A DNA stretch of 64,000 bases from Nemertoderma westbladi (GCA_032718475.1 JAUCBJ010004780.1:13177-77176), one strand, 5' to 3'. Shown: positions 20,230 to 59,624, counted from the first letter of the stretch. Program-made: numbers and translations. The notes: generated by a model not told the origin, from the letters alone.

Positions 20230-21173
20230 GTAAGTTGAGCTCTTTAAATATGATTATTTGAAGATATTTTATTATCTAATGGGAATGATATACAGTTATA
20301 ATAATTACCAAAATCTAACAGACTAACAATAAATGACCACTTAATTAACCTATAAATTACAATAAACATTTCGTTTATATTATAAATAAATTACGTGTAA
20401 CAATATTAATGTAGTACCATACCCTACATTACCCAAGCACATTTACTATTTAATGTTATAATATTAACCAAACAACATCTACAACAAACAAATTAGCACT
20501 CAATATGTGCATTCAATATGCACTATGTGATTTACATACGTACATAGGGTATACGAAATCTAACAGGCAAGAGTGCAGATAAGCATTGCACCTCAAAAAT
20601 ATATGTCGTATTTAAATAAATGTTTACCATATTAGTGAAGAAGGAATGTACCAAAAATTAAATGAGTTTAACAAACAATAATCTATTCATGCATAGCTAA
20701 TTGAACTAATTGTTTATTAATGCCTGCCTACCTATAAACTAAGTTAATAGCAAACACTTGCAGCAAATAATAAACATATCGTATAGGATATACTAAACGT
20801 TCATCGCATACAATACTTAACTCACACATGCGCGCATGCATACCCACCCATAATACTTAACTCAATTACTATATAATACTGCCAATGTTACTGAGTAAAT
20901 TACAATAATGTAAACAACCACAACCTAAAAATGAATGTAACAAAAAAAACAAGTAACTACACAAAACTAATCTGACAAAATTTACAATAACATCGAATCT
21001 TTTATAAAGTTTTCTGGATTGACGATTTGTATATTCGGACAAACATAATCAATAATCAAATAACTATAAATCGGTTAAACAGACCAATAAAAGGTCGATA
21101 ATATAAATTAATGAAATAATGGATATCATTGAAAGACATACAATGATTGTGTCATAATTAATAAGAAATACTC

Positions 21174-22149
21174 TTAGTGTCTCGGATAGAATTCATCTAG
21201 TGTGCTCGCCGGAATTCTCTTCAACATCTCCTTCGGGAAGATTCGCAAGAGTTGCCAACCGATATCGAGTGAGTCGAAAACCGTGCGATTCTCGTAGGCG
21301 CCCTGGGAGATAAAAGTCTTCTCGAATTTATCGAGAAACTCGAGGTAGAGAAGGTCGTCCGAGGACAGCGCCTCTTCTCCGACAACCGCCTTCATTGCCT
21401 GCACGTCCTTCCCGATCGCGTAGTTAGCGTACAACTGATTGGAGACATCCCCGTGGTCCCGACGGGTCATCCCCTCCCCGATCGCGCTCTTCATCAACCT
21501 AGACAACGAGGGGAGCACGTTGATAGGCGGGAAGATCTGCCGGTTGTGCAGCTGTCTGTCCACGTAGATCTGGCCCTCGGTGATGTACCCGGTGAGATCG
21601 GGGATCGGGTGGGTGATGTCGTCGTTGGGCATCGTGAGGATGGGTATCTGCGTGATGGATCCGCTGCGACCCTCGACCCGACCCGCGCGCTCGTAGATGG
21701 TCGCCAGATCGGTGTACATGTACCCCGGGAACCCACGTCGACCGGGGACCTCCTCTCGCGCCGCCGAGACCTCCCGCAAGGCCTCCGCGTAGGAACTCAT
21801 GTCGGTTAGGATAACCAGGACGTGTTTCTCGCATTGGTACGCGAGGAATTCAGCGGTAGTCAACGCCAAACGCGGCGTGATGATTCTCTCTATGGTGGGA
21901 TCGTTGGCGAGGTTGAGGAAGAGACAGACGTTCTCCATGGAGCCGTGCTCCTCGAAGTCCTGCTTGAAGTACCTCGCGGTCTCCATGTTGGCGCCCATGG
22001 CGGCGAACACGATGGCGAAGTTGTCGTCCTCGTCGCGTTCCATCCCCTGCCGTCGGACCAACCCCGCCTGTCGGCAGATCTGGGCCGCGATCTCGCTGTG
22101 CGGGAGACCCGCCGAGGAGAATATCGGTATCTTCTGCCCGCGAGCGATG
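21174..22149 (-). CDS. ATP6V1B: V-type proton ATPase subunit B, exon 2
   Basis: [76 protein letters not shown]; acceptor ttgcag|C in phase 2. Confidence 0.97.
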
Positions 22150-22652
22150 CTGCAACGGAACGGGTGGGTTAGTTGGCTTACTGGATATATCGTACAACGC
22201 GGATTGTATATATATTTTTTATCATATTTACAATTGTGACATAACTGTAGTCCTGTAAACCGCATAAAACTTGAACTTGTGAGAGAAAAAACCTCATTCA
22301 GCGCAACATTATAGATACGGAATAAATAGTTAGTATTTCAGTTTCTGTCCCATTCAGGAGCAAAATATTGAAACAGATCTGTATGGGTTGTAGTTATTGG
22401 TAGGCCTACCTATGCACGGATTTTGCGAATATATCGTCAATATTGTAATCCCCTACAACACTAGACTTGTTGCAAACAGGAATATGATGCAAAAAACCGA
22501 TCCAGTTAAAATCGACGAATGATGTTTTGTAATATAGGTAAGGGGAAGACTGGGTCCCGGTCTGGGTCCCGGTGGTAGACTAAATAAGCAAGCAAGCAAT
22601 ATCATAGCGGTACGGTATTGACGAGTTATACGACGAGCTAAAAATATCTCAC

Positions 22653-23170
22653 CTGTTCATTGTGTCTATGGCGGATATTCCCGTCTGTATCATTTCCTCC
22701 GGGTAGGTCCGACAATAGGGATTGATTGGCTGTCCCTGTATGTCGAGGTAATCCTCGGCTAAGATCGCGGGCCCCTTATCGATGGGTTTACCGGAGCCGT
22801 TAAACACCCGTCCCAACATATCCTCGGAGACCGGTGCGTGCAGAATGTCCCCAGTAAACTCGCACAACGTATTCTTCGCGTCGATCCCCGATGTTCCCTC
22901 GAACACCTGGACTACTGCTTTGCTTCCCGACACTTCGAGGACCTGTCCGCTGCGACGGGAGCCATCAGCCAACGTTAGCGTTACAATCTCCGCAAACTTT
23001 GGGAATTTAACGTCGTCTAGGATTACCAGAGGTCCGTTAACTCCAGTTACCGTCCGGTACGTCAGTCGTGGTTGCGATTCGTAGTTTCGGTTCGCCGCTC
23101 GTGCATTCTCCCGCTGCATCTGTCGCTCGTTGAAATTCATTAAATCTTTATTCGGACCCATTTTAGCCAT
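22653..23170 (-). CDS. ATP6V1B: V-type proton ATPase subunit B, exon 1
   Basis: [47 protein letters not shown]; donor AG|gtgaga; a 503-bp intron (22150-22652) joins the two exons into 497 aa. Confidence 0.97.
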
Positions 23171-23536
23171 AAAAGTATTGAAGATGAGTTACAGAATATA
23201 AATTTTTGTTGAGTTGTTGGTGGCAGAATGGAATACTGTACAGGAATAAGAAAAACAATCTACAGACATATGAGCAAATTACTATCACACTACTGCACTA
23301 CTGTATGACAGGACAGTACAAAACGGAGAACTACAGTAGGCCTACTTACTGAACTCTAGAACTAGGCTATTTTGTATGCCGGTACGACCTATTCTGCTAT
23401 TGTTATATTCTGCTGTTCTCACGGTGGGGCTGAAGCGGCTGAACCAACTTTTTATAAAAGAAAAATGCCCGGCCAAACTGATTTCTTTTCTAGGGGCACT
23501 TCAACGCCCTGATTCCAAAAATGATATTTTCAAAAT

Positions 23537-26152: not shown

Positions 26153-26252
26153 TACCGCCCTGGTAGCTCAGTGGTCTTAGGACACACACTCGGCTGATGA
26201 TAACCGGAAGTTTGAAACCTAGGTACCGGGTTCGAGCCCCAATAGGGGCGGT
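26153..26252 (+). pseudogene. Degenerate tRNA-derived sequence (tRNA pseudogene or SINE head)
   Basis: A-box-like TAGCTCAGTGG, B-box-like GGTTCGAGCCC, complementary ends ACCGCCCT/AGGGGCGGT and a downstream T5; the central arm is irregular, so no anticodon can be assigned. Confidence 0.6.
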
Positions 26253-28251
26253 TGATATTTTTCGCTATGGAGAGCATTATCATAATGTACTATAATATTT
26301 ATAAATAATGTTAACTGGAAAAGCCACGATCTAAGCACCCGTCACAATCAAGGGCATAGACTGATCAGCTGATAGAGGAATTGCTTTTGGAAGATCAATA
26401 CCTTTAAATGGGAATGGTGTGTATTAAAAGTGGTTTGGGGGCGGTAGCGCTCTAACTCTAACTAAATAGTTTTGGGCAGTTGGGTGGGAGCAGCTTATTT
26501 TGAATCAAAATTATAAGTTAACGTTCTTAAGTATTTCGTTATATAGATAGGAATCCGGTAAATTGACTGATTGACAAAATTTGTAAGTGGTTTCCTCTAG
26601 GAAGCGGTAAATTGACCAAAAATACAAAAATTTTATAAGCAGATACAGAGATAAGTGGTTTGCCATTGGAACTGGTAAAATGACAATAAAAAAGTTAAAA
26701 ATGGATGCCCCCAAACAGGAACGTCCCCGTTTTTTAAGTAAATTACGAAAATTATTATTGAGCAATTATTACACAGTGTGTATTTTTAGGAATTGTGGCA
26801 TTTTATGTAGGCCTACTAATTAATATTTTAATTTAATCAATACATCAATAATTAAATAAATTTGTTCATTATTTGGCATTTCTTAATACCGGTACTGTAA
26901 TACCGGTAGTTAATTAGCAGTTTTAGTTAATTAGGTACCGGTAATTGATATATAGAATATAACAGTATAACCTTGGGATCTATATGCGAATCAGGTGTCA
27001 GGTCTCATCTTGGATCTTGTATTGTTTTTCTATCGTTATTACTGTTGTTGAATTGAATAATTCGTTTAATTTCCTGTACATAATGGGTGGAAGTAAATAG
27101 GAAAATTAGGCCTACCGTTAATCACAAACACAGATTACATAAAACTTTAAAATTACAGAAATAATACGTTAAAATTACTAATAAAAATAAATATAACTTT
27201 AAAACGTACCTACGTACTGATGTATATGTAACTTGTTAGCTGAGATTCTTAAAAAAAGCTCAAAATTATTAAAAGATACGAGAGACTTGCAACTTAATAC
27301 AGTAATAAAAGCAACTGTATTACTACAGTACTACTATTCAGCTATTATCTGATTATGTTAATAAACAAACTTTAACTGTTCAAAATAATAAGATTTATTA
27401 ATCACCCAATCAAGGGCATACTGGCAATCTGGCATAGACTGATAGACTGATAGAGGAATTGCTTTTGGAAAAACAATACTTTTTATGGGAATGTAGGAAT
27501 GGTGTGTATTAAAAGTGGCTTGGGCTTGGCAGCTTGGGGGCGGTAGCGTAAAAAATATTACATGTATATACAATACAGCAATAGGCCTACTGCAATAGGC
27601 CTACCGGCAACCGGTACCAGCCCAGCCTACCCTGCTACAGATATCACAGTATCAGGCTGTCAGGACAGCAGGATATAGTCAATCAGTCAATAGTTGAGTT
27701 TCTTGTATTCCAGTACCGGTATTCCTATAACTGTATGTATTGAATATAAGGCTAGTACGGTAGTAAAATAAAGTAAAAGTTTAGGCCTATAGGCAAATAG
27801 GCCTACCACAGCAGCACAGTACCAGTAGGCCTACACCTGTACACAGTAGGCCTACAGAAGTAAAAACTGAAAAATATTATGGTACCGGTAGGTGTAACTG
27901 CAACTGTCTAAGGTAAATTATAGGCCTGTGCCTGTAGGCCTAGTTGTAGGGCTGTCAGGTTGTGTTTCTTGTAAGACAAGATTCATACAGGTAACATACA
28001 GACATGACATAATGCTGTAATGATTTAGGCCTACAATGGCTGACTCCTGGCCAGCTGACTGGCTGGGCTGTGGGCTGGCTGCCCGGCACTGCCTCTGGTT
28101 CCGCTTTAAGCTGTCTGACTTCTGACTACCGACAATACAATGACGACCGGTACCGTACTGCTGTACTGACCTTGGACAGGACTGTACAGTACATACTGAC
28201 TAAGTGTAAACATGGTCCCACCTGGCGTAGTGTAGTGGCATGCAGTGTTGT

Positions 28252-29758
28252 ATGGCGTCTCTTTAGGGTCAATATTCAGTGTTTTAATATTTTTTATTCA
28301 GTATAAATTTACATTCAGTAATAATTAATATCTTTCAGTGTTCTACAATATCTTTTAGTAATTAATAAATTATCGTTCAGTAATAACTGAATTATCTTTC
28401 AGTATTTACTGAATTCATCTTTCAGTATTTACTGAATTATCTTTCAGTATTTACTGAATTATCTTTCAGTATTTACTGAATTATCTTTCAGTATTTACTG
28501 AATTATCTTTCAGTATTTACTGAATTATCTTTCAGTATTTACTGAATTATCTTTCAGTAATACTTAATTATCTTTCAGTAACGTATTTATCTTTCAGTGA
28601 TTATCTTTCAGTATTTACTGAATTATCTTTCAGTATTTACTGAATTATCTTTCAGTATTTACTGAATTATCTCTCAGTATTTACTGAATTATCTTTCAGT
28701 ATTTACTGAATTATCTTTCAGTATTTACTGAATTATCTTTCAGTATTTACTGAATTATCTTTCAGTATTTACTGGATTATCTTTCAGTATTTACTGAATT
28801 ATCTTTCAGTAATACTTAATTATCTTTCAGTAACGTATTTATCTTTCAGTGATTATCTTTCAGTATTTGCAATAGCACATCAGTATAAAATCACTCGTTA
28901 TAATAAATTCCGTATAAATTCCTTTATCTCTATTGAATTCAATAGGCCAATCACAAAAAAGGCATATTCTAGAATATATAATGTTAATTTACGAAAACTG
29001 TCGACGGTGCAGTATGGCCTATGCAGTATGAAGTTACACTAGGCTACACAGTTTGTTGTTAGTTATGTATTAGCGTGATATATTTAATTAAGTGTAAGAA
29101 ACTGAGGAAGAATAAACTGCAATGCCGCGTTTTTGTGGAGCATGTGGTTCAGCAAATGAACTGAATTTCTGTACTAGTTGCGGTCGTTCTCTTTTAGTGG
29201 ATGATACTCCCACCATTCACAATCGCAATCTAAACGAGAATACAAATCCATCGACCTCGCCACCACCTATGCCAAATGCGTTTACAGTAGATTTGGTAAG
29301 GGAAGCTGTCCGAGCTGTCAGTCCATACTGCTAGCACCGTCGACAGTTTTCGTAAATTAACATTATATATTCTAGAATATGCCTTTTTTGTGATTGGCCT
29401 ATTGAATTCAATAGAGATAAAGGAATTTATACGGAATTTATTATAACGAGTGATTTTATACTGATGTGCTACAGTATTGCAAATACTGAAAGATAATCAC
29501 TGAAAGATAATTCAGTAAATACTGAAAGATAATTCAGTAAATACTGAAAGATAATTCAGTAAATACTGAAAGATAATTCAGTAAATACTGAAAAGATAAT
29601 TCAGTAAATACTGAAAGATAATTCAGTATTACTGAACGATAATTTATTAATTACTAAGATATTGTAGAACACTGAAAGATATTAATTATTACTGAATGTA
29701 AATTTATACTGAATAAAAAATATTACCACACTGAACATTGACCCTAAAGAGACGCCAT
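28252..29758. mobile_element. Foldback non-autonomous DNA transposon with long TIRs containing a 22-bp tandem repeat
   Basis: Ends ATGGCGTCTCTTTAGGGTCAA / TTGACCCTAAAGAGACGCCAT; 8-bp TSD AGTGTTGT; arms about 28252-29017 and 29323-29758 with (GTATTTACTGAATTATCTTTCA)n in unequal copy number. Confidence 0.92.
29122..29334 (+). pseudogene. Truncated zinc-ribbon ORF (CxxC...CxxC) in the foldback loop
   Basis: MPRFCGACGSANELNFCTSCGRSL with an ATG start; the ORF ends where the right TIR begins. Confidence 0.5.
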
Positions 29759-29934
29759 AGTGTTGTGGCTAAATCCGTTGCCTTTAATTCACATCTCTCT
29801 GTATTTCACCTCTAAAAGCCGCACGGTTTTATTATTTACGGGGTGTAATAATTTGCAAATTGATTAATTTCTCCTCCTATTTTAGGGGATGATATACTGT
29901 AAATGGGCACATTTATGTGATTTTATCTTCCCCT

Positions 29935-32609: not shown

Positions 32610-33185
32610 TTACCCGGTAACCATTTCAGTTTCTTTATTTAAACTATTTTTATATTGTTCGTATAGGATTTTGTCAGACCGAAATCGGTTGACCAGTCGG
32701 GAGATTTGCTTGGGCGTCCATTGGTGCACATTTCTAGAGTCCTTCGCCATCTTCTTATAATTGCAATCTCCATAATTCTTAAGCATGTGGGAAACCAGAT
32801 CTGCATCATCCTGGGTAAGTTTCTTAGCGGGCTTATTAACCGGTATCGTTCGTGAAGACATCACCTCGAGATCTTCGATTACTGATGGTTTGTTCAACGT
32901 CTTCCTGCCAGGTCGACCCTTCTTCCCAACGGTTTCATCTACGTCCATGGTCTCCAGACTGTCCATCGCCGAGGGGATCTTAAAGGCGGCAGTCTGGCTG
33001 ACGTCCATCACTAATCCCATGTCGTCGAAGTTATCCTGTACCGATTTCTTGTTGTCCCAAGATTTCTTTAGGATGGGACATTGGATGGCCGGAACGCGTT
33101 TCGTTTTGTGGGCTTTGCCCCGACGTTTCTTTTGCGAGCCGGACAACGCATTGCGTTTCACTTTTCGTTTCTTCGGCTTACCCAT
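32610..33185 (-). CDS. NOP16: Nucleolar protein 16, single coding exon
   Basis: Basic MGKPKKRK N-terminus, IQCPILKKSWDNKKSVQDNFDDMGL, and NYGDCNYKKMAKDSRNVHQWTPKQI match Nop16 motifs; ATG at 33185. Confidence 0.9.
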   Translation of the reverse strand: MGKPKKRKVKRNALSGSQKKRRGKAHKTKRVPAIQCPILKKSWDNKKSVQDNFDDMGLVMDVSQTAAFKIPSAMDSLETMDVDETVGKKGRPGRKTLNKPSVIEDLEVMSSRTIPVNKPAKKLTQDDADLVSHMLKNYGDCNYKKMAKDSRNVHQWTPKQISRLVNRFRSDKILYEQYKNSLNKETEMVTG

Positions 33186-34513
33186 CAATAATAAGAACCG
33201 TTGCAATTAGATTGTTAAAATTATAGGTAAATAATTAATATTTACGATTTAGTAAATCGAATTAGTTATTAATATTTAATTAGTTATCTAATTAACATAA
33301 ACCAATATGTAGATACTACGAGTGTAATAAATACTACTAAATGCATTATACACACACTCTACTTAGCCTAGGGTAGCATCACTTATATTATAAAGAATAA
33401 GTAAGTTATAAAGGAATAGGGGTTGATCTGAAAATACAACTGTGAGACAGTGTGGGGGGGGGGGGGGGGGGGGTGACGCAAATCCCGTATCGGTGAATTA
33501 ATATATCGTATCATTGTAAAATTATAAATCAATGGGAAAGGAGCAGGTTACAGTGGCACATTGTTCTAACCAAAAAAATAAACTAAAGTCAAACAAGTTG
33601 CACTTTTAGTTTTGGTAACCATCACCTGTTATTTTGTTCCTTTTTCCCTTGGAGAGAGATGAATTTGATTGCGTCATTTTGAAAAAATGTGGAAGGACGT
33701 CACCTGGAGGGGTGGAACCAGTGAGTCCCTTTCCCGTTATTTCCACGTCTAAATAAAAGGCCAAAGCATTAGCCAGTAAAACTTCCAATATGCACAAACA
33801 GAAACTTAGCAATATACAGACAAAGAAATTAACTAGAGTAGCTAGCAAGCTGAAGCTAGCATTCGCGTTGTTCAATCTATATCCAATTTGAACCATTACT
33901 GTATAAACTAATAACCGACATCGTATTGTCAGGCGGGATTGGTTATGCCTACGGACATGTAAAATGTATTACGGAGCTATTCGTATTTCGCGTTGATCGC
34001 GTATGTTTGAGTTATATAATTCCGTCAAAAGGTAAAAGTAAAGAAACATTAATGTGCGCATGGAGTAGTTATTATTCAAAAACAATTAGATTTTGGGATA
34101 CATTGATATATTAATAGGAATAAAGTTACAGAAAGTAGTTACTTACCCGTCTATAAAAATCTCTATAAATCTTAAATCTCTTCTATAAAAATAACTATAA
34201 CACAGGCTTAAAGGTATTATCGCTGCACGTGAAATAAATATATAAACAACTGGCCGAAATCAGCAACGAGCGAAAATATTTATAACCAAATATTCATCGC
34301 AAAATTATTTCGTTAATATTAAATTATAATTTTTGCAATTAATTATGTAATACGTACTTAATTAATTAATTAATTAATATAAATCATTAGTGATTATATT
34401 TACTGCCTCATCTATTAAATACTGTAATAAATAACTGTAACTTACTAGGCCTACCTACTAAACATTATAGTGGAATCAAATGTGAGTTAATGGTTAAAGG
34501 TATTATAAATAAA

Positions 34514-35332
34514 TTATTTGTGCGATTTTGGGACTTCGATTGCGATTATAATAGCGATAATCGCGAGAACAATTAGGAGTATTGCGACGAGTATAAGAAG
34601 TTTCTTCCGGTGTTTAGCTTGGTATCTCGCGGCACCGCGAAGCTGTTGGTTACCCTGCTCCACCCTGGTGTACGCCGCATCCACATTGGCCTCTATTGAG
34701 TCAACAGTCTCTCCTTGCTCGCGAACCATATCCGACAGATCCTTCATAATCGTGTTTATATCGAGAATATCGCTCTCCAGTTCTTTAAGTTGTCGTTCCC
34801 GGTCTTCGAACGACTGTTGGTCGAGTTCTAGAATGAGTTCCTGTTGTTGGAGGCGCTCCATAGCCGCCTCTCTGGCCGCCTCATCCAGCAACCTAGCCTC
34901 CTCGTTGTCTCCATCGTAATCTTGCTCTCCCGCAGACCCATGTTGCCTAGCAGCCACTATCATGGTTGTCCGTAGTGACTGGACTACCCGCCGTTGCGTT
35001 TTGCCGTACTTCGAAGTCGCTTCTTCGAAATCCATTCGCAGCCGGTCGAGAAACAACGTCTCGTGTCGCTGCTTGGTCCCGACGTTGAGTTGCTTAAAGT
35101 TCTGGGCTGTGGTGTGTATTAGCAGGTTGGTCTCCTGCATGCTCGAGTGTATTTTGTCCCGCAGTGTTTGGCAGTCTGTTTTCGTACCGATTTGGCGTTG
35201 GTATCGCTCGATTGAGTTCGTGTTGTTGGTTATTCGCATCATGGAGCTCGTTACTCCGTCAAAAAGCGCGCTAGTTTCCTCGCCTCTCAAGGCCTCTCTG
35301 TCCGAGCTCTGCGTGGATCCGTAGTTCGTCAT
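34514..35332 (-). CDS. Endosomal Qa-SNARE syntaxin-7/12-like, single coding exon, 272 aa
   Basis: QIGTKTD...LR Habc motif, SNARE motif RERQLKELESDILDINTIMKDLSDMVREQGETVDSIEANV...QQL..AARYQ, C-terminal TM helix. Confidence 0.93.
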   Translation of the reverse strand: MTNYGSTQSSDREALRGEETSALFDGVTSSMMRITNNTNSIERYQRQIGTKTDCQTLRDKIHSSMQETNLLIHTTAQNFKQLNVGTKQRHETLFLDRLRMDFEEATSKYGKTQRRVVQSLRTTMIVAARQHGSAGEQDYDGDNEEARLLDEAAREAAMERLQQQELILELDQQSFEDRERQLKELESDILDINTIMKDLSDMVREQGETVDSIEANVDAAYTRVEQGNQQLRGAARYQAKHRKKLLILVAILLIVLAIIAIIIAIEVPKSHK

Positions 35333-40585: not shown

Positions 40586-40830
40586 ATGGCAACTTTATCA
40601 TCGAAGGAGCGAAATATGAGATATTTCGATAAGCTGAAAAGGGAGGGACGTATGGATGACTATCGTAGAAAATCTAACACTAATAAAAGGTTGCAGAGGA
40701 GCAGAAGAAAGGAGACAATGTCAGAAGCAGAGTTGAAAAGGGAAAGAGTTAATAATAGGTTGCGTCGACGTATGTACAGGGACCGAAAACGTGATAAAGA
40801 GATCCAACGGCCATCAGCGCAAAACGCCAG
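40586..40830 (+). CDS. C2H2 zinc-finger protein, exon 1 (basic, helical N-terminus)
   Basis: AAAAATGG start context; R/K-rich MATLSSKERNMRYFDKLKREG...RDRKRDKE; donor AG|gtgaga in phase 2 matches the acceptor at 42748. Confidence 0.75.
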
Positions 40831-42747: not shown

Positions 42748-43432
42748 GTTCAATATTGAAAATTCCATTCCACTGGAATTTGATTCAACGCGGAGTGAAG
42801 AAGATGAAACAGTCTGTAATATTTGCAATAAATCATTTAAAAGCAGAATCACCGTAAAGATTCACAGGAGACTAGAACACGTGTATAAATGTGACAACTG
42901 TATCTTACGGTTTGTTACCCATTCCAGTTTCCAGAGACATAAATGCGATAATGCGAATTGTAACAAATCATCAGCAACTTCCTCCAAGAACCGACAACCA
43001 AATCCTAATCGATCCCCCCAAACCCCCGTGGAAAGAACTATACATGTAAATACCGGTAAAGTAAATCAAATAACTTCTCGGAAGTTAGTTACTGTTATGG
43101 TACATCTCAACCACAAATGCGATATGTGTTCTTCGACTTACAAATCGCCGGCTTTGCTCAAGGATCACATTGTATCTGTCCATGGTAACGACTCTAGCAA
43201 TGGTAATTATTCGCAATCACCCAAATGCGAACCTTCGTCTAAAAATAATTCTAATATTACCTGCAATACTTGCAATAAATCGTTTGCAGATCTGCTTGTC
43301 TTAGAACGACACATGATTGAACACGAGAGTTACCTGTGCAGTGAATGCGGTATGCTATTTGCTACTAAAGGCAGCCATTCTCGGCATTATCGTAAGTGTT
43401 GCCGTTTAGGGGAAAACGATACAACTCAGTAA
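42748..43432 (+). CDS. C2H2 zinc-finger protein, exon 2 (about 5 fingers); 309 aa spliced
   Basis: tttttcag| acceptor; CNICNKSF...HRRLEH, CDNC...H.C, CDMCSSTY...HIVSVH, CNTCNKSF...HMIEH, CSECGMLF...HYRKC. Confidence 0.85.
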
Positions 43433-44012: not shown

Positions 44013-44573
44013 ACACACATAGCGATTATAATATCAATATGATATGGTTTTCAAATCGAATTCGGGATTATTTTCGTTAATAATTTTGATATTAATTTAA
44101 TATTATTTTATTACGCACAATCTGTTACCAACTAATTTTTTTTATTAAAGTTGGAATTCTCGATCCACTACATATTCGATTATGTAATTTTAACATATAT
44201 TTTTATTGAGTTTTTTCCGAAAGTCGAAAGGTTTTTTTCACTCCTATAAAGAGGAGGACAGAACTAATATATTTACTTTGACTCTTGATTGGTTAGCGAT
44301 GCCTTATGGCTGGCAGATAGGCGACTTTGGACGTAATAAAAATCCATCCCTCTCCAGAGGAAAATCGACAAGGATAACAGCTGATTTCTGCCAAAAATCA
44401 AGGTGTAACCTGTTCTATTAATTTTCTTTTAGTGTTTTGGTTAGAAGAACGTGCCACTGTAACCTGCTAATTTCCCCTAATTGATAATTAAACATTGAGG
44501 CGATATCGGTTTTGCGTCCACCACCCTCACTCTGTTCTCCCCAATACACCATAACAATGAAAAGTTTTAGAAA

Positions 44574-45182
44574 TTAGTTGTCTTTATGAATATCGTCTAA
44601 TGTTAAAGAGTCGAACTTCTTATAAAACTGAATGGCGTCTGTCAGTCCGAGTCCTTTTAAATCCCCGGCCTCGGGTATGCGACAAAGTTCAGTGAACCCG
44701 AACTTCCTCCACATGTGAATGGACGCCGAATTATTAACGAAAACGAGATTAAAGAACGCCGCTTGGTACCCCAAACCCGGGGCGATGCGTAGAAACTCCT
44801 TCCCCATGAACGAACCCAATCCTTCTCCTCTCGCCTCCTGTCCAACAACGAAACCCGCGTTACAAATGTGGGAACATCGACCTGGGAAGTTCGGTTTTAC
44901 GTAGAATGCGCCGACAATGGAACCATCCGTGGAATCCTTTAGAACAAAAACGTCGTGGGAAAGATAGTAGGCCTTAAAGTCATTAACGTCCGATAGATCG
45001 ATCTGTGGGTACGATGTACCTTCCTGGATCACGTTTGCTACTAAGATATGGAGTTGGTTCGTGTCAGTATCAGCTTCGTAGTGATCTAACGTTACTCTCC
45101 TGCCGGTCTTTGATACCCAACTAATTGGGAGGAATGATAATCGAGTTGTATTGCTGTTACGTGGTGGTATGTAGTACGCCAT
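44574..45182 (-). CDS. GNAT N-acetyltransferase, Mpr1/Spt10-like, single coding exon, about 202 aa
   Basis: EGTSYPQ, GAFYVKPNFPGRCSHICNAGFVV, acetyl-CoA motif RGEGLG, GYQAAFFNLVFVNN..SI..W.K.GF...IP.AG; ATG at 45182 in TAAAATG context. Confidence 0.9.
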   Translation of the reverse strand: MAYYIPPRNSNTTRLSFLPISWVSKTGRRVTLDHYEADTDTNQLHILVANVIQEGTSYPQIDLSDVNDFKAYYLSHDVFVLKDSTDGSIVGAFYVKPNFPGRCSHICNAGFVVGQEARGEGLGSFMGKEFLRIAPGLGYQAAFFNLVFVNNSASIHMWRKFGFTELCRIPEAGDLKGLGLTDAIQFYKKFDSLTLDDIHKDN

Positions 45183-46004: not shown

Positions 46005-46103
46005 CATACTTGCAGCATATGGGAATCCTGAGGAAATTATTGCAGCTTTCAGATCATTGTACGATGGTTGCGGCACAATTGTGTCTAATGCTGATGGGGA
46101 CAC
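46005..46103 (+). mobile_element. Short RTE-type LINE RT fragment
   Basis: Translates ILAAYGNPEEIIAAFRSLYDG, matching the RT ORF at 48650-49024. Confidence 0.7.
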
Positions 46104-47809: not shown

Positions 47810-47824
47810 GTACTCTCAGAATCA

Positions 47825-49315
47825 CTACTACTACGATCGGCATGCTGCATTGCAGCTGCATTATATATATATTTATATTACATATATGTATATAACTCAA
47901 GAAAGCCATGGGCTATCCACTATGCTTATTCACTCCATGAGGCCGCCAAAGCACAAGATTATGCACTGACTGGTCCTCATGGCGATAGCAATGTCCTGCA
48001 AAGCAGAGGGGGCTTTGTTCAAGTGTCAAGCTAGGGAAGAATGATGGAACACCTCCAATGGCAATGTTGTATAGAGTCTGATTGGAGATGTGTTCATTGT
48101 ACTTGACACAATGAACCCGGCGTAGCATTCTTGTGAAAGTGCCATTCAGAGATTTGGTATCCTCTGCAGTTAGAGACCAGCATGGATTCCCATATAAGAG
48201 TCTGGTACTACTACTGCCATAAATACTTGAACCTTAAGGTTCCTTTTTATTCTATGGGACTTCCAACGCTACCCATGCCTTCCCCTTACGTATCCGAGGT
48301 CGGACCTGACTTTCTGATCCTTGATCCCAAGTAGCAGAAGTCATCTACGTGCTCAAGCAAGCCGTTCTTAGAGCTTATGCCCGTACGATCAGACATTTCT
48401 TGAGGACTGTCTGTCTAGGTTAACTGTCATGATTGTGGTCTTTTTGGAATTTTCAAAAAGACCATCACTAGAAGCAATCTGGTCCAATGATCAGAGGAGC
48501 CGTTGGGCTCCCTCTAGTGATTCTGAGAGTACAGTACTCCTAAGTCATCAGCAAAGTCTAGATCAGTTAGGTACTTGGCAGGATTTCCTTGACTTCTGGA
48601 GCCAGTAGGGGGTGTTACCATCACCCCGGAATTTACAAAAAGACCATCACTAGAAGCAACCTGCTCCAATGATCAGAGGAGCCGTTGGGCTCCCTCTAGT
48701 GATTCTGAGTACTCCTAAGTCATCAGCAAAGTCTAGATCAGTTAGATACTTGGCAGGATTTCCTCGACTTCTGGAGCCAGTAGGGGGTGTTACCATCACC
48801 CCATCTTCATTAAGATGGTCTAAGGACATGCGTAGAACATAATCAACCACAATTACGAATAAGAATGGTGCAAGTATGTCACCCTGAAGGACTCCCCATA
48901 AGACTTCGAATGGATCTGTGTCACCATCAGCAGTAGCCACAAATGTGGTGGGACCATCGTACAGTGATCTGATAGCTGCAATAACTTCTTCAGGAATCCC
49001 ATATGCTGCCAGTATGCTGAACATACGTGGTCGGGAGACTGATTCGAAGGCTTTAAAGAAGTCAACAAAGATAATAGTATTGATAACTCTTATAATATTG
49101 ATAACTTTTCGATTATCCTTCCAAGTGCCAGAATAAGCTCCATGGTCCCACGACCTTTACGGAACCCATTTTGGTTCCCACGTAACAGTCTCTCAACAGG
49201 ATCCCTGATCCGATTTAATAGAATGTTGTATAGCTTTGCAGCAATCGCGATTAAAGAGATTCCACGAAAAGATCCGCCTTTTTTTAGGTTGCCCTTGTTT
49301 GGGGCTGGGACCAAC
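47825..49315 (-). mobile_element. Degenerate RTE-type LINE: RT domain and 3' end
   Basis: FRGISLIAIAAKLYN, NQNGFRKGRGT, FVDF.KAF.SV, GVLQGDILAPFLF, LDFADDL; frameshifted; internal duplication near 48455-48810; (TAG)n tail at about 47825. Confidence 0.9.
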
Positions 49316-49324
49316 GTATTTGTT

Positions 49325-50097
49325 TTCAGTTCTCAGTACTCTCAGAATCACTGGAGCCCTATGGCTCCTTTGCTCATTGGAGCAGCCTGCTTCTGGTGTA
49401 GGTCTTTTTATAAATTCCAATATGAAACTGTTGACAGTGAAACTTGATAGCACTCAAAGAGATGTCTGATCGTAAAGGCATAAGCTCCAGGGATGTCTTG
49501 CTTGTGTATGTGGATGACTTCTGCTACTTGGGATCATGGATCAGAATGTCAGATACGTAAGAACAGAATAGTCTGTCCAGGATTTGGAAGTCCCATAGAA
49601 TAAAACGGAACCTTAAGGTTCGATTATTTATGGCAGTAGTAGTACCAGTACTCTTATATGGGAGTCCATGCTGGGCTCTAACTGCAGAGGATGCACTTTC
49701 ACAAGAATGCTGCGCCGGGTTCATTGTATCAAGTACAATGAACAGATCTCCAATCAGACGCTATAAAACATTGGAGGTGTTCCATTAATCTCCCCTAGCT
49801 TGACACTTGAACGGAACCGGCTCTGCTTTGCAGCACATTGCTTTCGCCGCGAGGACCAGCCATTGCATAATCTTGTGGCCTCGTGTAGTGAATAAGCATG
49901 GTGGACAGCCCATGACTTTCTTGAGACTTAAAGGACACTGGACATGAATATGTGGATGATCTAGCAAATGTCATGGGTGATAGGGAGTTGTGGCGGCGAC
50001 ATTTTGTCGACAAACCGGCACAGCATTCTTAATATAATGTAATATACATAATGCAATGCAGCTGAAATGCAGCATGCCGATAGTAGTAGTAGTAGTA
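49325..50097 (+). mobile_element. Second RTE-type LINE 3' fragment, inverted relative to 47825-48650
   Basis: Reverse-complement similarity to 47825-48540 (e.g. cccctagcttgacacttgaac, gcagcatgccgat), ending in a (TAG)n tail. Confidence 0.8.
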
Positions 50098-50412: not shown

Positions 50413-53052
50413 GGTTATATTGAAAAATATCGAGACATGAAAAATATCGAGAGTAAAATAACGCGAGTAAAAACATCGAGTGTTGAAAAATAACGATAAT
50501 ATCGAGAGTTCAAAAAATATCGAGAGTAAAAATATCGAGGGTAAAAATATCGAGAGTAAAAATACCGAGTGTTGAAAAATATCGAGAGTAAAAATATCGA
50601 GAGTAAAAATATCGAGTGTAGAAAAATATCGTGAGTAAAAATATCGAGTGTTGAAAAATATCGAGAGTAAAAATATCGAGTGTTGAAAAATATCGAGTGT
50701 TGAAAAATATCGAGTGTTGAAAAATATCGAGTGTTGAAAAATATCGAGTGTTGAAAAATATCGAGTGTTGAAAAATATCGAGAGTAAAAATATCGAGTGT
50801 TGAAAAATATCGAGAGTAAAAATATCGAGTGTTGAAAAATATCGAGTGTTGAAAAATATCGAGAGTAAAAATATCGAGTGTTGAAAAATATCGAGTGTTG
50901 AAAAATATCGAGTGTTGAAAAATATCGAGAGTAAAAATATCGAGTGTTGAAAAATATCGAGTGTTGAAAAATATCGAGTGTTGAAAAATATCGAGAGTAA
51001 AAATATCGAGTGTTAAAAAATATCAGGTGTTGAAAAATATCGAGTGTTGAAAAATATCGAGAGTAAAAATATCGATAGTAACAATTTTTTTAAATAAGGG
51101 TTTTATGATAATTTTTTTTACTAAAAATGTTCTAGAACAACAATATTTATCAACATTTGGTAGCTTATACAGTACGTGTTCTAATATAATATTTAACAAT
51201 ATTTATAATATTTATCAAAATTTATAGCTAGCAGCCTAGCACGTCTTTTATAATATTTATTAAAAAAATAGCAAAAACTAGCTAGTATAATAAATCTGGT
51301 AAATGGGTACCCAAGGTGTATTACATAATGCCATTCACTTGCACTGTTGTAACCCATGCACTGCAATATTGTTCCATAATTCTAAATAAAATGCTCAAGC
51401 AAAATGCAATATTTTTACTCTGAATATTTTTCAACACTCGATATTTTTACTCTCGATATTTTTACTCTGGATATTTTTCAACACTGGATATTTTTACTCT
51501 CGATATTTTTCAACACTCAACTTTTCAACTTTCAAGTTACTCAAAACTCACCTCTATAATCGTGCATTCAACTAAAAACTGTTTTATTCGAACTCATTTA
51601 TCGTATAACATTATTTTATTTAATCATTTTACAGTACAGTACTCCTGGCCCAAAAATAACTACGGGTCTTTTAAACGACATGTATTTTACTTTTTACTTA
51701 AGGAGAGTGCTCAGCGCTTAGAATAATTACTTGTTTTTTAAATAAGCGCTTTATAAATATTGAATTATTATTATTATTATTATTAACACTCGATATTTTT
51801 CAACACTCGATATATTTACTCTCGATATTTTTACTCTCGATATTTTTCAACACTCGATATTTTTACTCTCGATATTTTTACTCTCGATATTTTTACTCTC
51901 GATATTTTTCAACACTCGATATTTTTCAACACTCGATATTTTTACTCTCGATATTTTTACTCTCGATATTTTTCAACACTCGATATTTTTACTCTCGATA
52001 TTTTTACTCTCGATATTTTTACTCTCGATATTTTTACTCTCGATATTTTTACTCTCGATATTTTTACTCTCGATATTTTTACTCTGAATATTTTTCAACA
52101 CTCGATATTTTTACTCTCGATATTTTTCTCTGGATATTTTTCAACACTGGATATTTTTACTCGCGATATTTTTCAACACTCAACTTTTCAACTTTCAAGT
52201 TACTCAAAACTCACCTCTATAATCGTGCATTCAACTAAAAACTGTTTTATTCGAACTCATGTATCGTATAACATTATTTTATTTAATCATTTTACAGTAC
52301 AGTACTCCTGGCCCAAAAATAACTACGGGTCTTTTAAACGACATGTATTTTACTTTTTACTTAAGGAGAGTGCTCAGCGCTTAGAATAATTACTTGTTTT
52401 TTAAATAAGCGCTTTATAAATATTGAATTATATTATTATTATTATTAACACTCAATATTTTTCAACACTCGATATTTTTACTCTCGATATTTTTACTCTC
52501 GATATTTTTCAACACTCGATATTTTTACTCTCGATATTTTTACTCTCGATATTTTTACTCTCGATATTTTTACTCTCGATATTTTTAATCTCGATATTTT
52601 TCAACACTCGATATTTTTACTCTCGATATTTTTACTCTCGATATTTTTCAACACTCGATATTTTTACTCTCGATATTTTTCAACACTCGAAATTTTTACT
52701 CTCGATATTTTTACTCTCGATATTTTTCAACACTCGATATTTTTCAACACTCGATATTTTTACTCTCGATATTTTTCAACACTCGATATTTTTACTCTCG
52801 ATATTTTTCAACACTCGATATTTTTACTCTCGATATTTTTCAACACTCGATATTTTTACTCTCGATATTTTTCAACACTCGATATTTTTCAACACTCGTT
52901 ATTTTCGATATTTTTCATCTCGCGTTATTTTTACTCTCGATATTTTTTAATCACGTTAATTTTCAACACTCGTTATTTTTACTCTCGATATTTTTACTCT
53001 CGTTATTTTTACTCTCGATATTTTTCAAGTCTCGATATTTTTCACCATTACC
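50413..53052. mobile_element. Merlin-like foldback element (2640 bp) with TIRs expanded by 15/17-bp repeats
   Basis: GGTTATATTGAAAAATATCGAGACATG vs reverse complement GGTAATGGTGAAAAATATCGAGACTTG; exact 8-bp TSD ATATTTAG; arrays of AAAAATATCGAGAGT and AAAAATATCGAGTGTTG on the left, inverted on the right; internal 671-bp offset duplication. Confidence 0.85.
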
Positions 53053-53857: not shown

Positions 53858-55207
53858 ATGTCTCTACTACTGCATGTTGCTTATATTATTTTATTAACGT
53901 TGTCACTGTACCTGACGCCAATTCAGTGCAGGTTTGAAGGCTCTAACGATGGTGAACTCGTCATGGTGAACGTTGTGTTCAGACACGGAGACAGATCTCC
54001 AGTTAGCACCTTCCCTAACGACCCCTACTACACGTTTTGGCCTCAGGGTCTGGGACAGCTCACTCAACTCGGGATGCAGCAACAATACGATCTTGGGCAG
54101 TTCCTGCGAGAGCGATACAACGGGTTCCTTGAAGAGTCCTACTCGCGACACGATACTCGGGTTATCAGCACCGACGTCGATCGCACGAGAATGTCCGCAG
54201 AGGCCAACCTCGCCGGCTTGTACCGCCCGCGGGGCCACCAGGTGTGGAACCCATCCATACCATGGCAACCCATACCGGTACACAAAGCCCCCACACCTGA
54301 TTACATTCTAGAATCATACGAGATTTGCCCAAGAAGAATAACCTTAGAAGCAGAGTTTAGAGAAACGGATGAGTATGAAAGGCAATTTGAAGAGAATGTG
54401 GATGTCCTGGAGGTAATTCGCGATAACATAGGGGAGTTTAACTGCACCGATGAGGAGACTGGTAGACCACAGAGTATATTCGAGTGTTACTGGTTCATAG
54501 CGGATTGCGTGGTCTGCTGGAGGGCGCACAACCTAACTCTACCCGAGTGGCTGAGCCCAGAAGCTGCGTCGCGGATTGTCCGACTGTACGACTGGTTGTG
54601 GGCCGCCCAGTTGCACTCCGACCAGTCTCGCCGACTGCTAGGCGGTCCGCTACTCGGCCGGTTGGTCACCGACACACAGTCCCGAGTTCGCGAACCCACC
54701 TCCGGCCCCAAACTCCGTCTGTATTCGGGACACGACACCACCGTGTCGCCGTTGTTGGCGGCACTTCGGGTGTTCAACGATCTCCAACCTCCGTACGCAA
54801 CCGCCCTCATTATGGAGTTATGGCGGAGGAACGGAACTGCCATGAACAAAAACACCAACGACTACTCGATTAAGTTGTTCTTACGGAATGAGTCTTATTC
54901 CAACGAAGTTCACCCACTAACTGTCCTGGGTTGCTCAGCAACCTGCTCTCTCCCCCGTTTTATCAACTTAACGCGGCCTTATATTCCTACAGATATAGCG
55001 ACCGAATGCGCAATTCCGCCGCCAGGTGTTTCTTACGTCTTCTACTTACTATCCGTTGCCTTGGTGGCCTGTGTAGCTGTGGTTTTAGGCGCCCTAATTA
55101 TTTGGGTGTTTTTGAAGCCGCGTGTGAAGAATCGCAGAGAATACGAAAGATTACTCGGTGATACCCAGTCTAGTGGGGGGTCTGGAGACACTACTAAACT
55201 GGTGTGA
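53858..55207 (+). CDS. Lysosomal-type histidine acid phosphatase (ACP2-like), single coding exon, 449 aa
   Basis: Signal peptide, catalytic RHGDRSP, WPQGLGQLT..G..Q...LG.FLR.RY, STDVDRTRMSA, WQPIPVH, YSGHDTT, C-terminal TM helix and YERL (YxxPhi) tail. Confidence 0.94.
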   Translation: MSLLLHVAYIILLTLSLYLTPIQCRFEGSNDGELVMVNVVFRHGDRSPVSTFPNDPYYTFWPQGLGQLTQLGMQQQYDLGQFLRERYNGFLEESYSRHDTRVISTDVDRTRMSAEANLAGLYRPRGHQVWNPSIPWQPIPVHKAPTPDYILESYEICPRRITLEAEFRETDEYERQFEENVDVLEVIRDNIGEFNCTDEETGRPQSIFECYWFIADCVVCWRAHNLTLPEWLSPEAASRIVRLYDWLWAAQLHSDQSRRLLGGPLLGRLVTDTQSRVREPTSGPKLRLYSGHDTTVSPLLAALRVFNDLQPPYATALIMELWRRNGTAMNKNTNDYSIKLFLRNESYSNEVHPLTVLGCSATCSLPRFINLTRPYIPTDIATECAIPPPGVSYVFYLLSVALVACVAVVLGALIIWVFLKPRVKNRREYERLLGDTQSSGGSGDTTKLV

Positions 55208-57312
55208 TTGGGGATACCCAGTCTAGTGGGGGGTCTGGAGACACTACTAAACTGGTGTGACTGGGGATACCCAGACTAGTGGGGGGTCTGGAGACACTAC
55301 TAAACTGGTGTGATTGGGATACCAAGTCTAGCGGGGGGTCTGGAAACACTACTAAACTGGTGTGATTGGGGATACCCAGTCTAGTGGGGGGTCTGGAAAC
55401 ACTACTAAACTGGTGTGATTGGGGATACCGGGGGGTCTGGAGACACTACTAAACTGGTGTGACTGGGGATACCCAGACTAGTGGGGGGTCTGGAGACACT
55501 ACTAAACTGGTGTGATTGGGGATACCCAGTCTAGTGGGGGTCTGGAGACACTACTAAACTGGTGTGATTGGGGATACCGGGGGGTCTGGAGACACTACTA
55601 AACGGGTGTGATTGGGGATACCCAGACTAGTGGGGGGTCTGGAGACACTACTAAACTGGTGTGATTGGGGATACCCAGACTAGTGGGGGGTCTGGAGACA
55701 CTACTAAACGGGTGTGATTGGGGATACCCACTCTAGTGGGGGGTCTGGAGACACTACTAAACGGGTGTGATTGGGGATACCCAGTCTAGTGGGGGGTTTG
55801 GAGACACTACTAAACTGGTGTGATTGGGGATACCCAGACTAGTGGGGGGTCTGGAGACACTACTAAACGGGTGTGATTGGGGATACCCACTCTAGTGGGG
55901 GGTCTGGAGACACTACTAAACGGGTGTGATTGGGGATACCCAGTCTAGTGGGGGGTTTGGAGACACTACTAAACTGGTGTGATTGGGGATACCCAGACTA
56001 GTGGGGGGTCTGGAGACACTACTAAACTGGTGTGATTGGGGATACCCAGTCTAGTGGGGGGTCTGGAGACACTACTAAACTGGTGTGATTGGGGATACCC
56101 ACTCTAGTGGGGGGTCTGGAGACACTACTAAACGGGTGTGATTGGGGATACCCAGTCTAGTGGGGGGTTTGGAGACACTACTAAACTGGTGTGATTGGGG
56201 ATACCCAGACTAGTGGGGGGTCTGGAGACACTACTAAACTGGTGTGATTGGGGATACCCAGACTAGTGGGGGGTCTGGAGACACTACTAAACTGGTGTGA
56301 TTGGGGATACCCAGTCTAGTGGGGGGTCTGGAGACACTACTAAACGGGTGTGATTGGGGATACCCAGTCTAGTGGGGGGTTTGGAGACACTACTAAACTG
56401 GTGTGATTGGGGATACCCAGACTAGTGGGGGGTCTGGAGACACTACTAAACGGGTGTGATTGGGGATACCCAGTCTAGTGGGGGGTTTGGAGACACTACT
56501 AAACTGGTGTGATTGGGGATACCCAGACTAGTGGGGGGTCTGGAGACACTACTAAACGGGTGTGATTGGGGATACCCAGACTAGTGGGGGGTCTGGAGAC
56601 ACTACTAAACGGGTGTGATTGGGGATACCCAGACTAGTGGGGGGTCTGGAGACACTACTAAACGGGTGTGATTGGGGATACCCAGACTAGTGGGGGGTCT
56701 GGAGACACTACTAAACTGGTGTGATTGGGGATACCCAGTCTAGTGGGGGTCTGGAGACACTACTAAACGGGTGTGATTGGGGATACCCAGTCTAGTGGGG
56801 GGTCTGGAAACACTACTAAACTGGTGTGATTGGGGATACCCAGTCTAGTGGGGTGTCTGGAGACACTACTAAACTGGTGTGATTGGGGATACCCAGTCTA
56901 GTGGGGGGTCTGGAAACACTACTAAACTGGTGTGATTGGGGATACCCAGTCTAGTGGGGGGTCTGGAGACACTACTAAACTGGTGTGATTGGGGATACCC
57001 AGACTAGTGGGGGGTCTGGAGACACTACTAAACGGGTGTGATTGGGGATACCCAGACTAGTGGGGGGTCTGGAGACACTACTAAACTGGTGTGATTGGGG
57101 ATACCCAGACTAGTGGGGGGTCTGGAGACACTACTAAACTGGTGTGATTGGGGATACCCAGACTAGTGGGGGGTCTGGAGACACTACTAAACTGGTGTGA
57201 TTGGGGATACCCACTCTAGTGGGGGGTCTGGAGACACTACTAAACTGGTGTGATTGGGGATACCCAGACTAGTGGGGGGTCTGGAGACACTACTAAACTG
57301 GTGTGATTGGGG
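55157..57312 (+). repeat. 53-bp minisatellite, about 41 copies; first unit is the end of the acid phosphatase CDS
   Basis: Unit GGGGATACCCAGTCTAGTGGGGGGTCTGGAGACACTACTAAACTGGTGTGATT; ATACCCAG at 55161 and 55214. Confidence 0.98.
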
Positions 57313-59624
57313 TGGGTGCGATTTAATGCTACGGTAGTAGTATGTCGTAATGTATTCAATATCATTCTATTTATATTATATACTCTATAGGTCTACTTAT
57401 ATTATGTATTTATAGTTTCTCAATGTATTATTGAGTGTTACTAGTTTTCATGATTTTTTCTCCAATAAATTTATTTATCAATTTTTTTTCTTACTTTCTT
57501 ATTGTAATAAAAGCAATATTAATAATTAGTTACATTATTAGATGTTTACCTGTTTTGTGTTCAAGGGACTATATAGTTTTTTTAACATCTAGGCCTACAG
57601 TAGATACTTCCCAACGACGAATACTGATAAAGTAATAAATAGACTATCATATGTTTGTCATTTATTTTGCAATAAATTAGTTGATTTAGGTATATTTAGT
57701 AACCAAATTCGTTATTCCAATATATTACATTACCAAATTTACTCATGTTATGACAATATGGTCATTTTAAAACTGTGATACCGGTTATTGTAATTAGCAT
57801 ATCGTATGTTTTTTTATCTCTAACCCACAACCCACCAAATTTGAACTTGTGACTGCCTTTCGTAAAGTTGTTAACATGTGATCATTTTAAATTTGTATCT
57901 GTTTGCTAGTATCATACACAATTCATTAACTTTGTGGTTTATTAATTGTGAGGTGATAAATGCGTCTAATTGGTGGAAAAATAAGTTTTTTTTTGTTTAT
58001 TTCAAGTCCTTATTTATTATTATCTGGTATGTTTTAAATTGAATTGTAGAGGCATACTTGACTTACAATAAATTTATTTGTTTAAGTAATTTGTGTTTTA
58101 AATTTCAATTTTAGTTATTAATATATTGTTTTTTGTTACATTGTTTACGATTTTATATAATAATGATGTTTGTATTCTAGTAAATTATGTGTAAATTTAA
58201 TTATTTATTTATTTGTGTGGAATTAATTTCGCAATACCAAATCGCCAGGGCGATATATTTTCAAACTTTGTATCGCCGCTTTGCGACATTATTTCTCAGT
58301 ATGTCATTACGTCACACATTTATTTTGTATGTCCAAGTCATCGCGTCATTCTAAATATAATTACATGACGTCATTCGAATTCACGAATTCAGATTCGAAC
58401 CAATATCTCTTGCAATCATAACCCAACGTCTTATCCATTAAGTTACTTTGGTACGATATACTGTAAAAGTGTTTAAATGCAACTAGACAACAACATCAAT
58501 CGTGCCGTAACGCTATAAAGTACTATCTTTTGAACAATGAAGTAATTATTTATTTGAGTTATAGTTCATATGCGTACCGATGGTATTTTCGTATTGCAAA
58601 AATAAGACTATAAGTATGAAATACCCTATGTTATTGAGATAATGTTTATTGTTTTGGTTAGAAAATCCCACCACTGTAACCTGCTCCTTTCCGTTAATTA
58701 AGTAATGGAGATTAGTTTATTGTTTTGGTTAGAAAACACCACCACTGTAACACCATCGGTACGCATATGAACGATAACCTTTATTTGGGTGGAATTAATG
58801 TCGCCGTACCAATTCACACAGAGCGAAAAGTAGATTAAATTAATGTTAAAATGATCTGAGTGTTTTAATATACCGAGCGAGAGTAACGGGGGATGTTTAC
58901 CAAAATTATACAACAAAAGTTATAAACGCTGAATAGAGAGCACTTTATTGTTTCATTATGTCACTTCTCATAGTTCGGGTGATATCCTCGTAACGCAGCT
59001 CATCGTTATCTTAGTACAGTAACAATAAACTTCTAGAACACGTCTTGAGTATTATCCATTCATAATAGCCATTGTATGATTGGAAGTGTATGATTATTTA
59101 CCATACAGTTGCTAGAGTAACTGCAATTAATTGCTTAACAAAGAAATTAATTTCAGGACGCTGATGTAATGGTTGCGGGTTGACAACGCACCGTTTGAAC
59201 CACTAACTCTGCGCTGCTACCTTTAGTTAAAAACATAAAGTTCCAAGCTTTTAATGTTGACTTTTTATAGAAAACTTCGCGTGAGTGAAGGGCAACAATT
59301 AAATGAAAAATATTTGTAATGACTCATTTGTTCTTCACTTATATAATTTGGACCTGTGCCGAACCAGCAGAAGTGATGCGGCAACCCAGCGAACTGGCTT
59401 CTTTTTGGTGGTAAAGAAAATGGGTTGGGTAATTATGGAAAGTTCACCCTTGGGAGTTAGTGTGGCGCACCATCCCTGATTTAAGGACAATATTACAAGA
59501 GTAACAGTCAAGATGAGCCTTCAGGATGCCTCTGCTGTTTCGCGTGCACTTTTACCAATAGCTTTTACTTTTTACCTGCTTACCAATAATGCCGTTAAAA
59601 GTACATCCCTTGTTTATGCCACAG

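Follow-up and report, generated by a model that had tools for sequence, protein, structure and literature searches.

Six protein-coding genes probably nested in a single intron of a large cupredoxin-repeat and FN3 gene of Nemertoderma westbladi

How many unrelated genes can sit inside one intron of another gene? The question is raised by a stretch of 64,000 nucleotides from Nemertoderma westbladi (GCA_032718475.1 JAUCBJ010004780.1:13177-77176), referred to below as the window, in which the exons of a large host gene are interrupted between positions 20,230 and 59,624 by a segment with six protein-coding genes (ATP6V1B, NOP16, a syntaxin-7/12-type SNARE, a C2H2 zinc-finger gene, a GNAT acetyltransferase and a histidine acid phosphatase). 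An earlier note on this DNA had proposed that the segment is one intron of the host. Our analysis speaks for this view: probably, the six genes are nested in one spliced intron of an intact host gene.

The first step is to ask whether the exons on the two sides make one gene. A spliced host model from 8270 to 62005 joins 13 exons into 917 codons with zero stops, the same length as the translation in the earlier note; all acceptors are AG, and all donors are GT except for one GC (9045). Both ends of the host gene lie beyond the window. For the comparison of exon borders, metagenome contigs were scanned with the family alignment, which yielded 47 related loci; many of these are near-duplicates, so that counts of shared splice sites are not independent, and only one of them, contig L025, reaches the intron in question. 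The host exons are as follows.

8270-8496, plus strand: exon A, the earliest host exon that the window contains, encoding a cupredoxin-like repeat; its phase-0 acceptor has a position common to 46 of 46 projectable loci (many of them near-duplicates)
8880-9045, plus strand: exon B; homologue match, and the GC donor keeps the frame
11437-11574, plus strand: exon C; frame and homologue match
11977-12180, plus strand: exon D; frame and homologue match
15579-15738, plus strand: exon E; homologue match, donor common to 7 of 7 loci
16770-16921, plus strand: exon F, a CHB_HEX_C_1 / Fn3-associated domain; acceptor common to 5 of 5 loci
18134-18240, plus strand: exon G; acceptor common to 5 of 5 loci, donor to 6 of 6
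19092-19446, plus strand: exon H, an acidic linker and the start of the first FN3-type domain; phase-0 end as in L025
20077-20229, plus strand: exon I, with the bulk of the first FN3-type domain in 153 nt and phase 0 at either end; same length and phases in L025
59625-59883, plus strand: exon J, which completes the first FN3-type domain and encodes most of the second; homologue match
60254-60458, plus strand: exon K; homologue match
61004-61457, plus strand: exon L, a linker of low complexity whose placement follows from frame and splice sites only, with no homologue match
61833-62005, plus strand: exon M, a later FN3-type domain (homologue profile, expect value (E) 3.7e-6); the gene runs on past the window

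Elsewhere the projection of splice sites onto related loci is uneven (B donor 5 of 10, C donor 3 of 10, D donor 5 of 13, E acceptor 0 of 5, F donor 0 of 2), and some of the unmatched projections look one codon off. The host has fewer introns here than in some relatives: an extra one interrupts exon J in L025 (L025:14901-15562), and many related loci have exon A in pieces. Intron B-C, which begins with the GC donor (GAG/gcaagt at 9045/9046), contains a 2.3-kb array with a 22-nt unit.

The host belongs to a recognizable family. With exon A as query, an unindexed search recovered 70 relatives; among 40 candidates from a word-based search with exon J alone, there were none. Six proteins encoded in the window were also looked up by exact match in a protein collection, with zero hits. 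The long homologues, all uncharacterised, measure about 3,000-4,000 residues and come from Ptychodera, Glandiceps, two crinoids, Diadema, Elysia, Bulinus and Intoshia, and shorter pieces occur in Patella, Macrostomum and others. The family is found in a sponge and a choanoflagellate as well as in animals. Its members combine cupredoxin-like repeats, a CHB_HEX_C_1 domain and many FN3 domains, and the host agrees with them in the order of these elements, from the cupredoxin-like repeats through CHB_HEX_C_1 to FN3 (E down to 1e-132). The window covers residues ~460-1,100 of the Ptychodera protein, together with one later FN3 exon. Many homologues begin with MG-x-GAS (of the MG-x-x-x-S type), which we take to be a myristoylation-type N-terminus. 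In a tree of 15 rows, the window protein stands beside hemichordates and echinoderms (93/97, not starred), in a sampling without chordate, xenacoelomorph, cnidarian or ctenophore. A Foldseek search with the structure model of the Patella homologue returned generic beta-sandwich chains only, with a query template modelling score (TM-score) of at most 0.12 among the 50 matches listed, and pointed to no function for the host.

The second step concerns the join between exons I and J and the intron that it implies.

20230-59624, plus strand: putative intron I-J, 39,395 nt, GT-AG, phase 0

Its donor (GTG/gtaagt, 20229/20230) and its acceptor (cag/GTA, 59624/59625) are both in phase 0, just as first described. 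The exon I donor ranks 5th of 15 in strength and is equalled by only 5 of the 2,311 plus-strand GT sites of the interval, one of them the donor of the zinc-finger gene; a donor of this strength is more than chance. The J acceptor is ordinary, since 163 of the 1,960 AG sites in the interval equal its score, and its position is therefore fixed by homology. That homology is continuous. The earlier note had read the join FSDNV/VVTVP as uninterrupted, and in 10 of 11 homologues (from hemichordates, echinoderms, molluscs and a flatworm) a single BLASTP alignment does cross it with nothing missing; the exception is Intoshia, whose alignment ends at host residue 399, and with Diadema added the count becomes 11 of 12. 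Gaps within 7 residues of the join amount to 0-3 positions in ten homologues and to nine in one Elysia protein, in which the region of exon I looks mis-predicted, and the multiple alignment is gap-free at the junction in all 10 aligned homologues. In the AlphaFold model of the Patella homologue (mean predicted local distance difference test (pLDDT) 77, local 72-77), the join lies in strand 988-991; if the strands are counted, this would be the seventh and last one of the first FN3-type domain. Identity to the homologues is 29-44% in exons A-I, 33% in J and 36% in K; this similarity on both sides, together with the lack of stops, means that neither half of the host looks decayed. Nor does the interval hide further parts of the host. 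About 90 overlapping profiles along a homologue of 3,697 residues, run against six frames of the window, recovered all modelled exons except L and found no additional host exon between the nested genes, in agreement with the earlier note; the sole hit inside the interval was an Asn-rich stretch (41683-41781, E 0.012). The same scan found in the interval no leftover copies of exon I or J such as duplication and loss might leave.

The alternative that survives best, although we consider it improbable, is a gene fission, in which a rearrangement placed 39 kb in an old intron and split the host, so that the six genes are ordinary neighbours. Intronic polyadenylation would then end the 5' gene shortly past exon I, whereas the start of the 3' gene would be an ATG closely upstream of exon J or lie in a new first exon. 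The ends of the interval offer something to this idea. Reading on past exon I adds two residues before a stop and leaves the first FN3-type domain nearly complete, and hexamers of the AATAAA type follow at 20328, 20361 and 20385; these sit, however, in sequence of 31% GC, where they are common. An in-frame ATG lies three codons upstream of exon J, but the same is true of 3 of the 12 other acceptors (E, H and K). The interval is also about 12 times as long as the next-longest host intron (the other 11 measure 370-3,398 nt, versus 39,395 nt for I-J). Against a fission speak the two splice sites, kept exactly at their ancestral positions and with a strong donor, and the homologues, since none of those listed that cover the region ends at the junction. 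A short host isoform that ends past exon I is plausible as a by-product of an intact gene.

The third question is what the putative intron contains. The earlier note had counted six protein-coding genes, and six are present: five are full-length or nearly so, and the zinc-finger gene is open and less well anchored.

21174-23170, minus strand: ATP6V1B, V-ATPase B subunit, 497 residues, one 503-nt intron (exons 23170-22653 and 22149-21174)
32610-33185, minus strand: NOP16, 191 residues, one coding exon; residues 6-183 match a solved NOP16 (E 1.7e-19)
34514-35332, minus strand: syntaxin-7/12-type SNARE, 272 residues, one coding exon; best matches syntaxin-13/12 and syntaxin-7
40586-43432, plus strand (host strand): C2H2 zinc-finger gene, 309 residues, one 1,917-nt intron (exons 40586-40830 and 42748-43432)
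44574-45182, minus strand: Mpr1-like GNAT acetyltransferase, 202 residues, one coding exon (E 5e-26)
53858-55207, plus strand (host strand): histidine acid phosphatase of the ACP2/ACP3 type, 449 residues, one coding exon (E 5e-76)

Four of the genes are thus on the minus strand and two on the plus strand. Their coding spans take up 8,198 of the 39,395 nt, and coding introns are absent from four of them and limited to one each in the other two. In general, ATP6V1B, NOP16 and syntaxin-7/12 are housekeeping genes. Along almost all of its length, ATP6V1B shares 85-89% identity with the 12 homologues listed of 120; its identity to vertebrates, cnidarians, mites and hemichordates alike is 89-92%. 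Its residues 1-172 are encoded in one exon, where recurrent deletions in homologues (residues 56-88 in 5 of 120, 119-145 in 6 of 120) suggest exon borders; at its single intron, at residue 173, the 120 homologues show no indel border. The G+C content at its third codon positions is 0.74, versus 0.37-0.59 in the other coding sequences. The phosphatase has the RHG and HD motifs, a hydrophobic N-terminus and a C-terminal membrane helix. Among solved structures, yeast Mpr1 is closest to the GNAT protein (E 5e-26); as to a bacterial origin, there was one weak and uninformative match (34% over 59 residues). The zinc-finger gene is the least certain of the six, since its fingers alone were matched and its first exon was placed from ATG, donor and frame only. 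A fusion in which the host shares exons with the plus-strand genes was considered and rejected, as splicing between the host and the zinc-finger gene breaks the frame in both possible combinations and runs into immediate stops; in the 300 nt upstream of either plus-strand ATG, there is no in-frame AG that leaves the frame free of stops. A seventh gene was sought among 24 further open reading frames, none with a Pfam match, and the interval contains no tRNA genes.

A 39-kb intron invites the question of its age, and here L025 is informative. Its exon I has 153 nt and phase 0 at both ends, and the donor and the next acceptor lie at the same residues as in N. westbladi. The intron between them measures 808 nt and is gene-free, with no stop-free stretch of more than 83 codons. 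Identical position and phase suggest that intron I-J is old, was once small and has likely been enlarged about 50-fold, as judged from this sequence comparison. When the eight nested and flanking proteins were compared with the 47 related loci, there were zero matches, in a set in which most loci are short and L025 alone covers the intron.

The non-coding remainder of the interval consists of inverted repeats, tandem arrays and fragments of long interspersed nuclear elements (LINEs). Two of these features bear on the integrity of the assembly.

47896-49991, strand unassigned: decayed LINE-type reverse-transcriptase fragments, from a family with further copies at 5554-6772, beyond the intron
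55160-57312, strand unassigned: 53-nt tandem array, 41 copies; the final 15 residues and the stop codon of the acid phosphatase are encoded in its first unit

The LINE copies inside (47.9-50.0 kb) and outside (5.6-6.8 kb) are 66-80% identical, and a family common to both sides of the intron boundary indicates that the block belongs to this genome; contamination is unlikely for the same reason. It is much harder to believe in a misassembly, in which 39 kb from elsewhere were inserted in the intron through two false joins, than in the nested arrangement. The idea draws on the long tandem arrays of the interval, above all the 2.15 kb at 55160-57312, which the phosphatase frame enters and which is the one suspicious spot. 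It demands, however, two errors, and these would have to lead back to the correct exon in the correct orientation. There is no tandem repeat in the left flank (944 nt), and no repeat common to it and the right flank (4,417 nt) scored better than E 0.042. The window contains zero Ns, and its 2-kb arrays show resolved internal variants, suggestive of long reads. Moreover, a poly(A) signal lies 152 nt past the array, as expected for the 3' end of the phosphatase gene.

Three further repeat structures were seen. A foldback-like element at 28251-29759 has inverted arms that are 85-94% alike and an open reading frame of 72 codons with a weak double zinc-ribbon match (29116-29331). At 50420-53042, two arrays of one 15-17-nt satellite lie inverted to each other, together with an 823-nt direct duplication of 93% identity. 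An inverted repeat pair (33503-33675 and 44330-44506, 74%) flanks the syntaxin and zinc-finger genes and has short kin at ~41.0 kb and ~58.7 kb. An old inversion might account for the pair, or else these are dispersed small elements.

Together, these data suggest a model in which the 39.4-kb stretch is one old intron that would be removed whole by splicing, and in which each nested gene would be transcribed from its own promoter. The genes may have entered the pre-existing intron a few at a time, either as intron-poor copies derived from RNA or after intron loss driven by reverse transcriptase (the intron-poor state presents the same picture whether it arose by retrocopying or by intron loss in place), and transposons would have filled the spaces between them. 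The host, a cupredoxin-repeat/FN3 protein of 3,000-4,000 residues to judge by its homologues, might be expressed in few cells, so that the nest is tolerated. Ciliated cells or sperm are candidates for such cells, favoured because the family occurs in animals, a sponge and a choanoflagellate and because of its N-terminus; the Foldseek search gave no confirmation of such a role. Tolerance may also be aided by the antisense orientation of four of the six genes, which bring no splice or poly(A) signals of their own to the host strand. Wherever the host is expressed, the polymerase would need to pass through the two same-strand genes, and exon I would have to skip the out-of-frame acceptor of the zinc-finger gene.

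The earlier note had gone further and spoken of a whole gene neighbourhood inside the intron. That six genes share a likely single intron stands, but a joint arrival of the six is unsupported; an arrival piece by piece fits at least as well. Between the stepwise arrival of intron-poor copies and the move of a single block, we lean slightly towards the former, because the orientations are mixed, the gaps of 1-9 kb are filled with repeats and the introns are few. Copying through RNA is described as the typical route to nesting (PMC5174743), and wider intron loss of the kind considered here is discussed as well (PMC7738191).

Several points weigh against the model and should be set beside it. The support for the I-J junction comes entirely from sequence comparison, and the intron adjoins a domain boundary, so that two separate genes would be structurally tolerable. 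AATAAA signals stand behind both nested genes on the host strand, and the acceptor of the zinc-finger gene is the strongest of 15. The ancestral state of the intron is read from one contig (1 of 47 loci), with a weak hint from the mis-predicted Elysia protein. The restriction of the host to certain tissues is a guess. Old retrocopies lose their poly(A) tail and target-site duplication, and no A-run of 9 or more follows any of the eight stops (target-site duplications were not searched). Poverty in introns may be genome-wide, given that two genes outside intron I-J, SLCO and eIF3K, are intron-free too. Lastly, the 5' part of the host, about 457 residues ahead of exon A in the homologues, did not turn up: none of 14 profiles scored above 7 bits in 1-8200, although 11 of them score 15-67 bits on control loci.

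This last point has a second side. The intron that precedes exon A measures 146-441 nt in 11 related loci, versus more than 8.2 kb here, as follows from the short intron of the relatives and the undetected 5' residues. Unless the 5' part of the host is lost or separate, this intron probably holds the SLCO and eIF3K genes, and another host intron contains an RNA gene.

1218-3722, plus strand: SLCO/OATP transporter, 834 residues, one coding exon; possibly nested upstream of exon A
4475-5128, minus strand: eIF3K, 217 residues, one coding exon; possibly nested upstream of exon A
17116-17407, minus strand: nuclear RNase P RNA gene in host intron F-G (Rfam RF00009, 138 bits, full model)

The RNase P RNA gene is antisense to the host, and its product therefore cannot be cut from the host's own intron. 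Intron-embedded RNase P RNA is reported from insects and crustaceans. There is a slim chance that the host was broken recently by insertion of the block and is a young pseudogene, which would leave splice sites and frame intact, or that its halves are joined by trans-splicing of two transcripts. In favour of this, a polymerase that reads through the interval would face a real obstacle in the two same-strand genes and their poly(A) signals; but 917 codons without stop or frameshift and equal conservation on both sides speak against a break, the RNase P RNA gene in intron F-G and the long intron before exon A speak for repeated, long-term nesting, and nothing in the sequence points to trans-splicing.

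How does the proposed nest compare with known ones? Hosts of several genes are familiar, dunce and NF1 among them. Word searches of open papers yielded no case of six unrelated genes in one intron, though counts per intron may sit in supplements. The closest parallel is the TipE locus of Drosophila, where Teh4, Teh2, Teh3, TipE and VhaM9.7-c lie within one intron of CG18675, the orthologue of C21orf59 (PMC3240667). CG18675 is conserved and has its highest expression in testis, the corresponding Daphnia intron is gene-free, one member was retrotransposed and one was inserted later (PMC3240667). The two loci are alike in that several genes, including a V-ATPase subunit, share one (here likely) intron that is empty in another animal. 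They differ in that four of the five genes there are paralogues in the host's last intron, whereas here six families are represented in an intron that lies mid-gene and interrupts a domain, and core housekeeping types account for three of the six genes. The insect cluster of GMC oxidoreductases in an intron of flotillin-2 (PMC3240667) is likewise a whole cluster in one intron, but of one gene family.

Surveys of whole genomes give a similar picture. In Drosophila, complex nested genes reach up to 13 per host and are antisense in 71.3% of cases (PMC5174743); nested genes are narrowly expressed and fast-evolving in broadly expressed hosts, and 72.5% of those on the host's strand are single-exon (PMC3814207). 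The antisense majority (four of six here), the single-exon state of same-strand genes (one of two here) and the frequent derivation from RNA are points of likeness. In contrast to our case, the Drosophila nested genes are typically young and tissue-specific, whereas ATP6V1B here is 85-89% identical to other animals; the hosts there are broad and the host here is likely restricted; and the counts there are per host, not per intron. The ctenophore Hormiphora californensis, like N. westbladi a non-model animal, has abundant nesting, with 2,357 nested genes in 1,654 hosts, many of them on the same strand (PMC8527503); its example, however, comprises four genes with double nesting, as opposed to six genes in a single intron. 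For mammalian pairs, with all biotypes counted, a host at the 95th percentile has three to four nested genes, and the extremes are 77 and 186 (PMC11694760). Mammalian nested genes favour the longest intron of the host, a likeness to the present case, but they are tissue-specific in broad hosts (PMC11694760).

The arrangement is thus of a known kind, an upper-tail case of gene nesting that is unusually crowded with six unrelated, intron-poor genes of mostly housekeeping type. Because the counterpart intron in L025 is short (808 nt) and empty, the gain of genes is polarised. The usual roles in nesting are likely reversed, with conserved housekeeping-type genes inside and a probably restricted giant gene outside. 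The RNase P RNA gene in another host intron, and SLCO and eIF3K, probably in a third, are further new observations. A bolder idea, which we hold to be rather doubtful, is that such reversed nesting occurs throughout the genome, the only copies of housekeeping genes having been stripped of introns and moved into old introns of giant, rarely expressed, intron-rich genes. If this were true, nine genes or more would be spread over three introns of this one host (the six, RNase P RNA, SLCO and eIF3K), and its introns would be where the chromosome normally carries genes. Hosts of this sort will be split by gene predictors, and the present host family is indeed often annotated piecemeal. The locus also bears on how polymerase and spliceosome cross 39 kb that hold two same-strand genes with poly(A) sites of their own.

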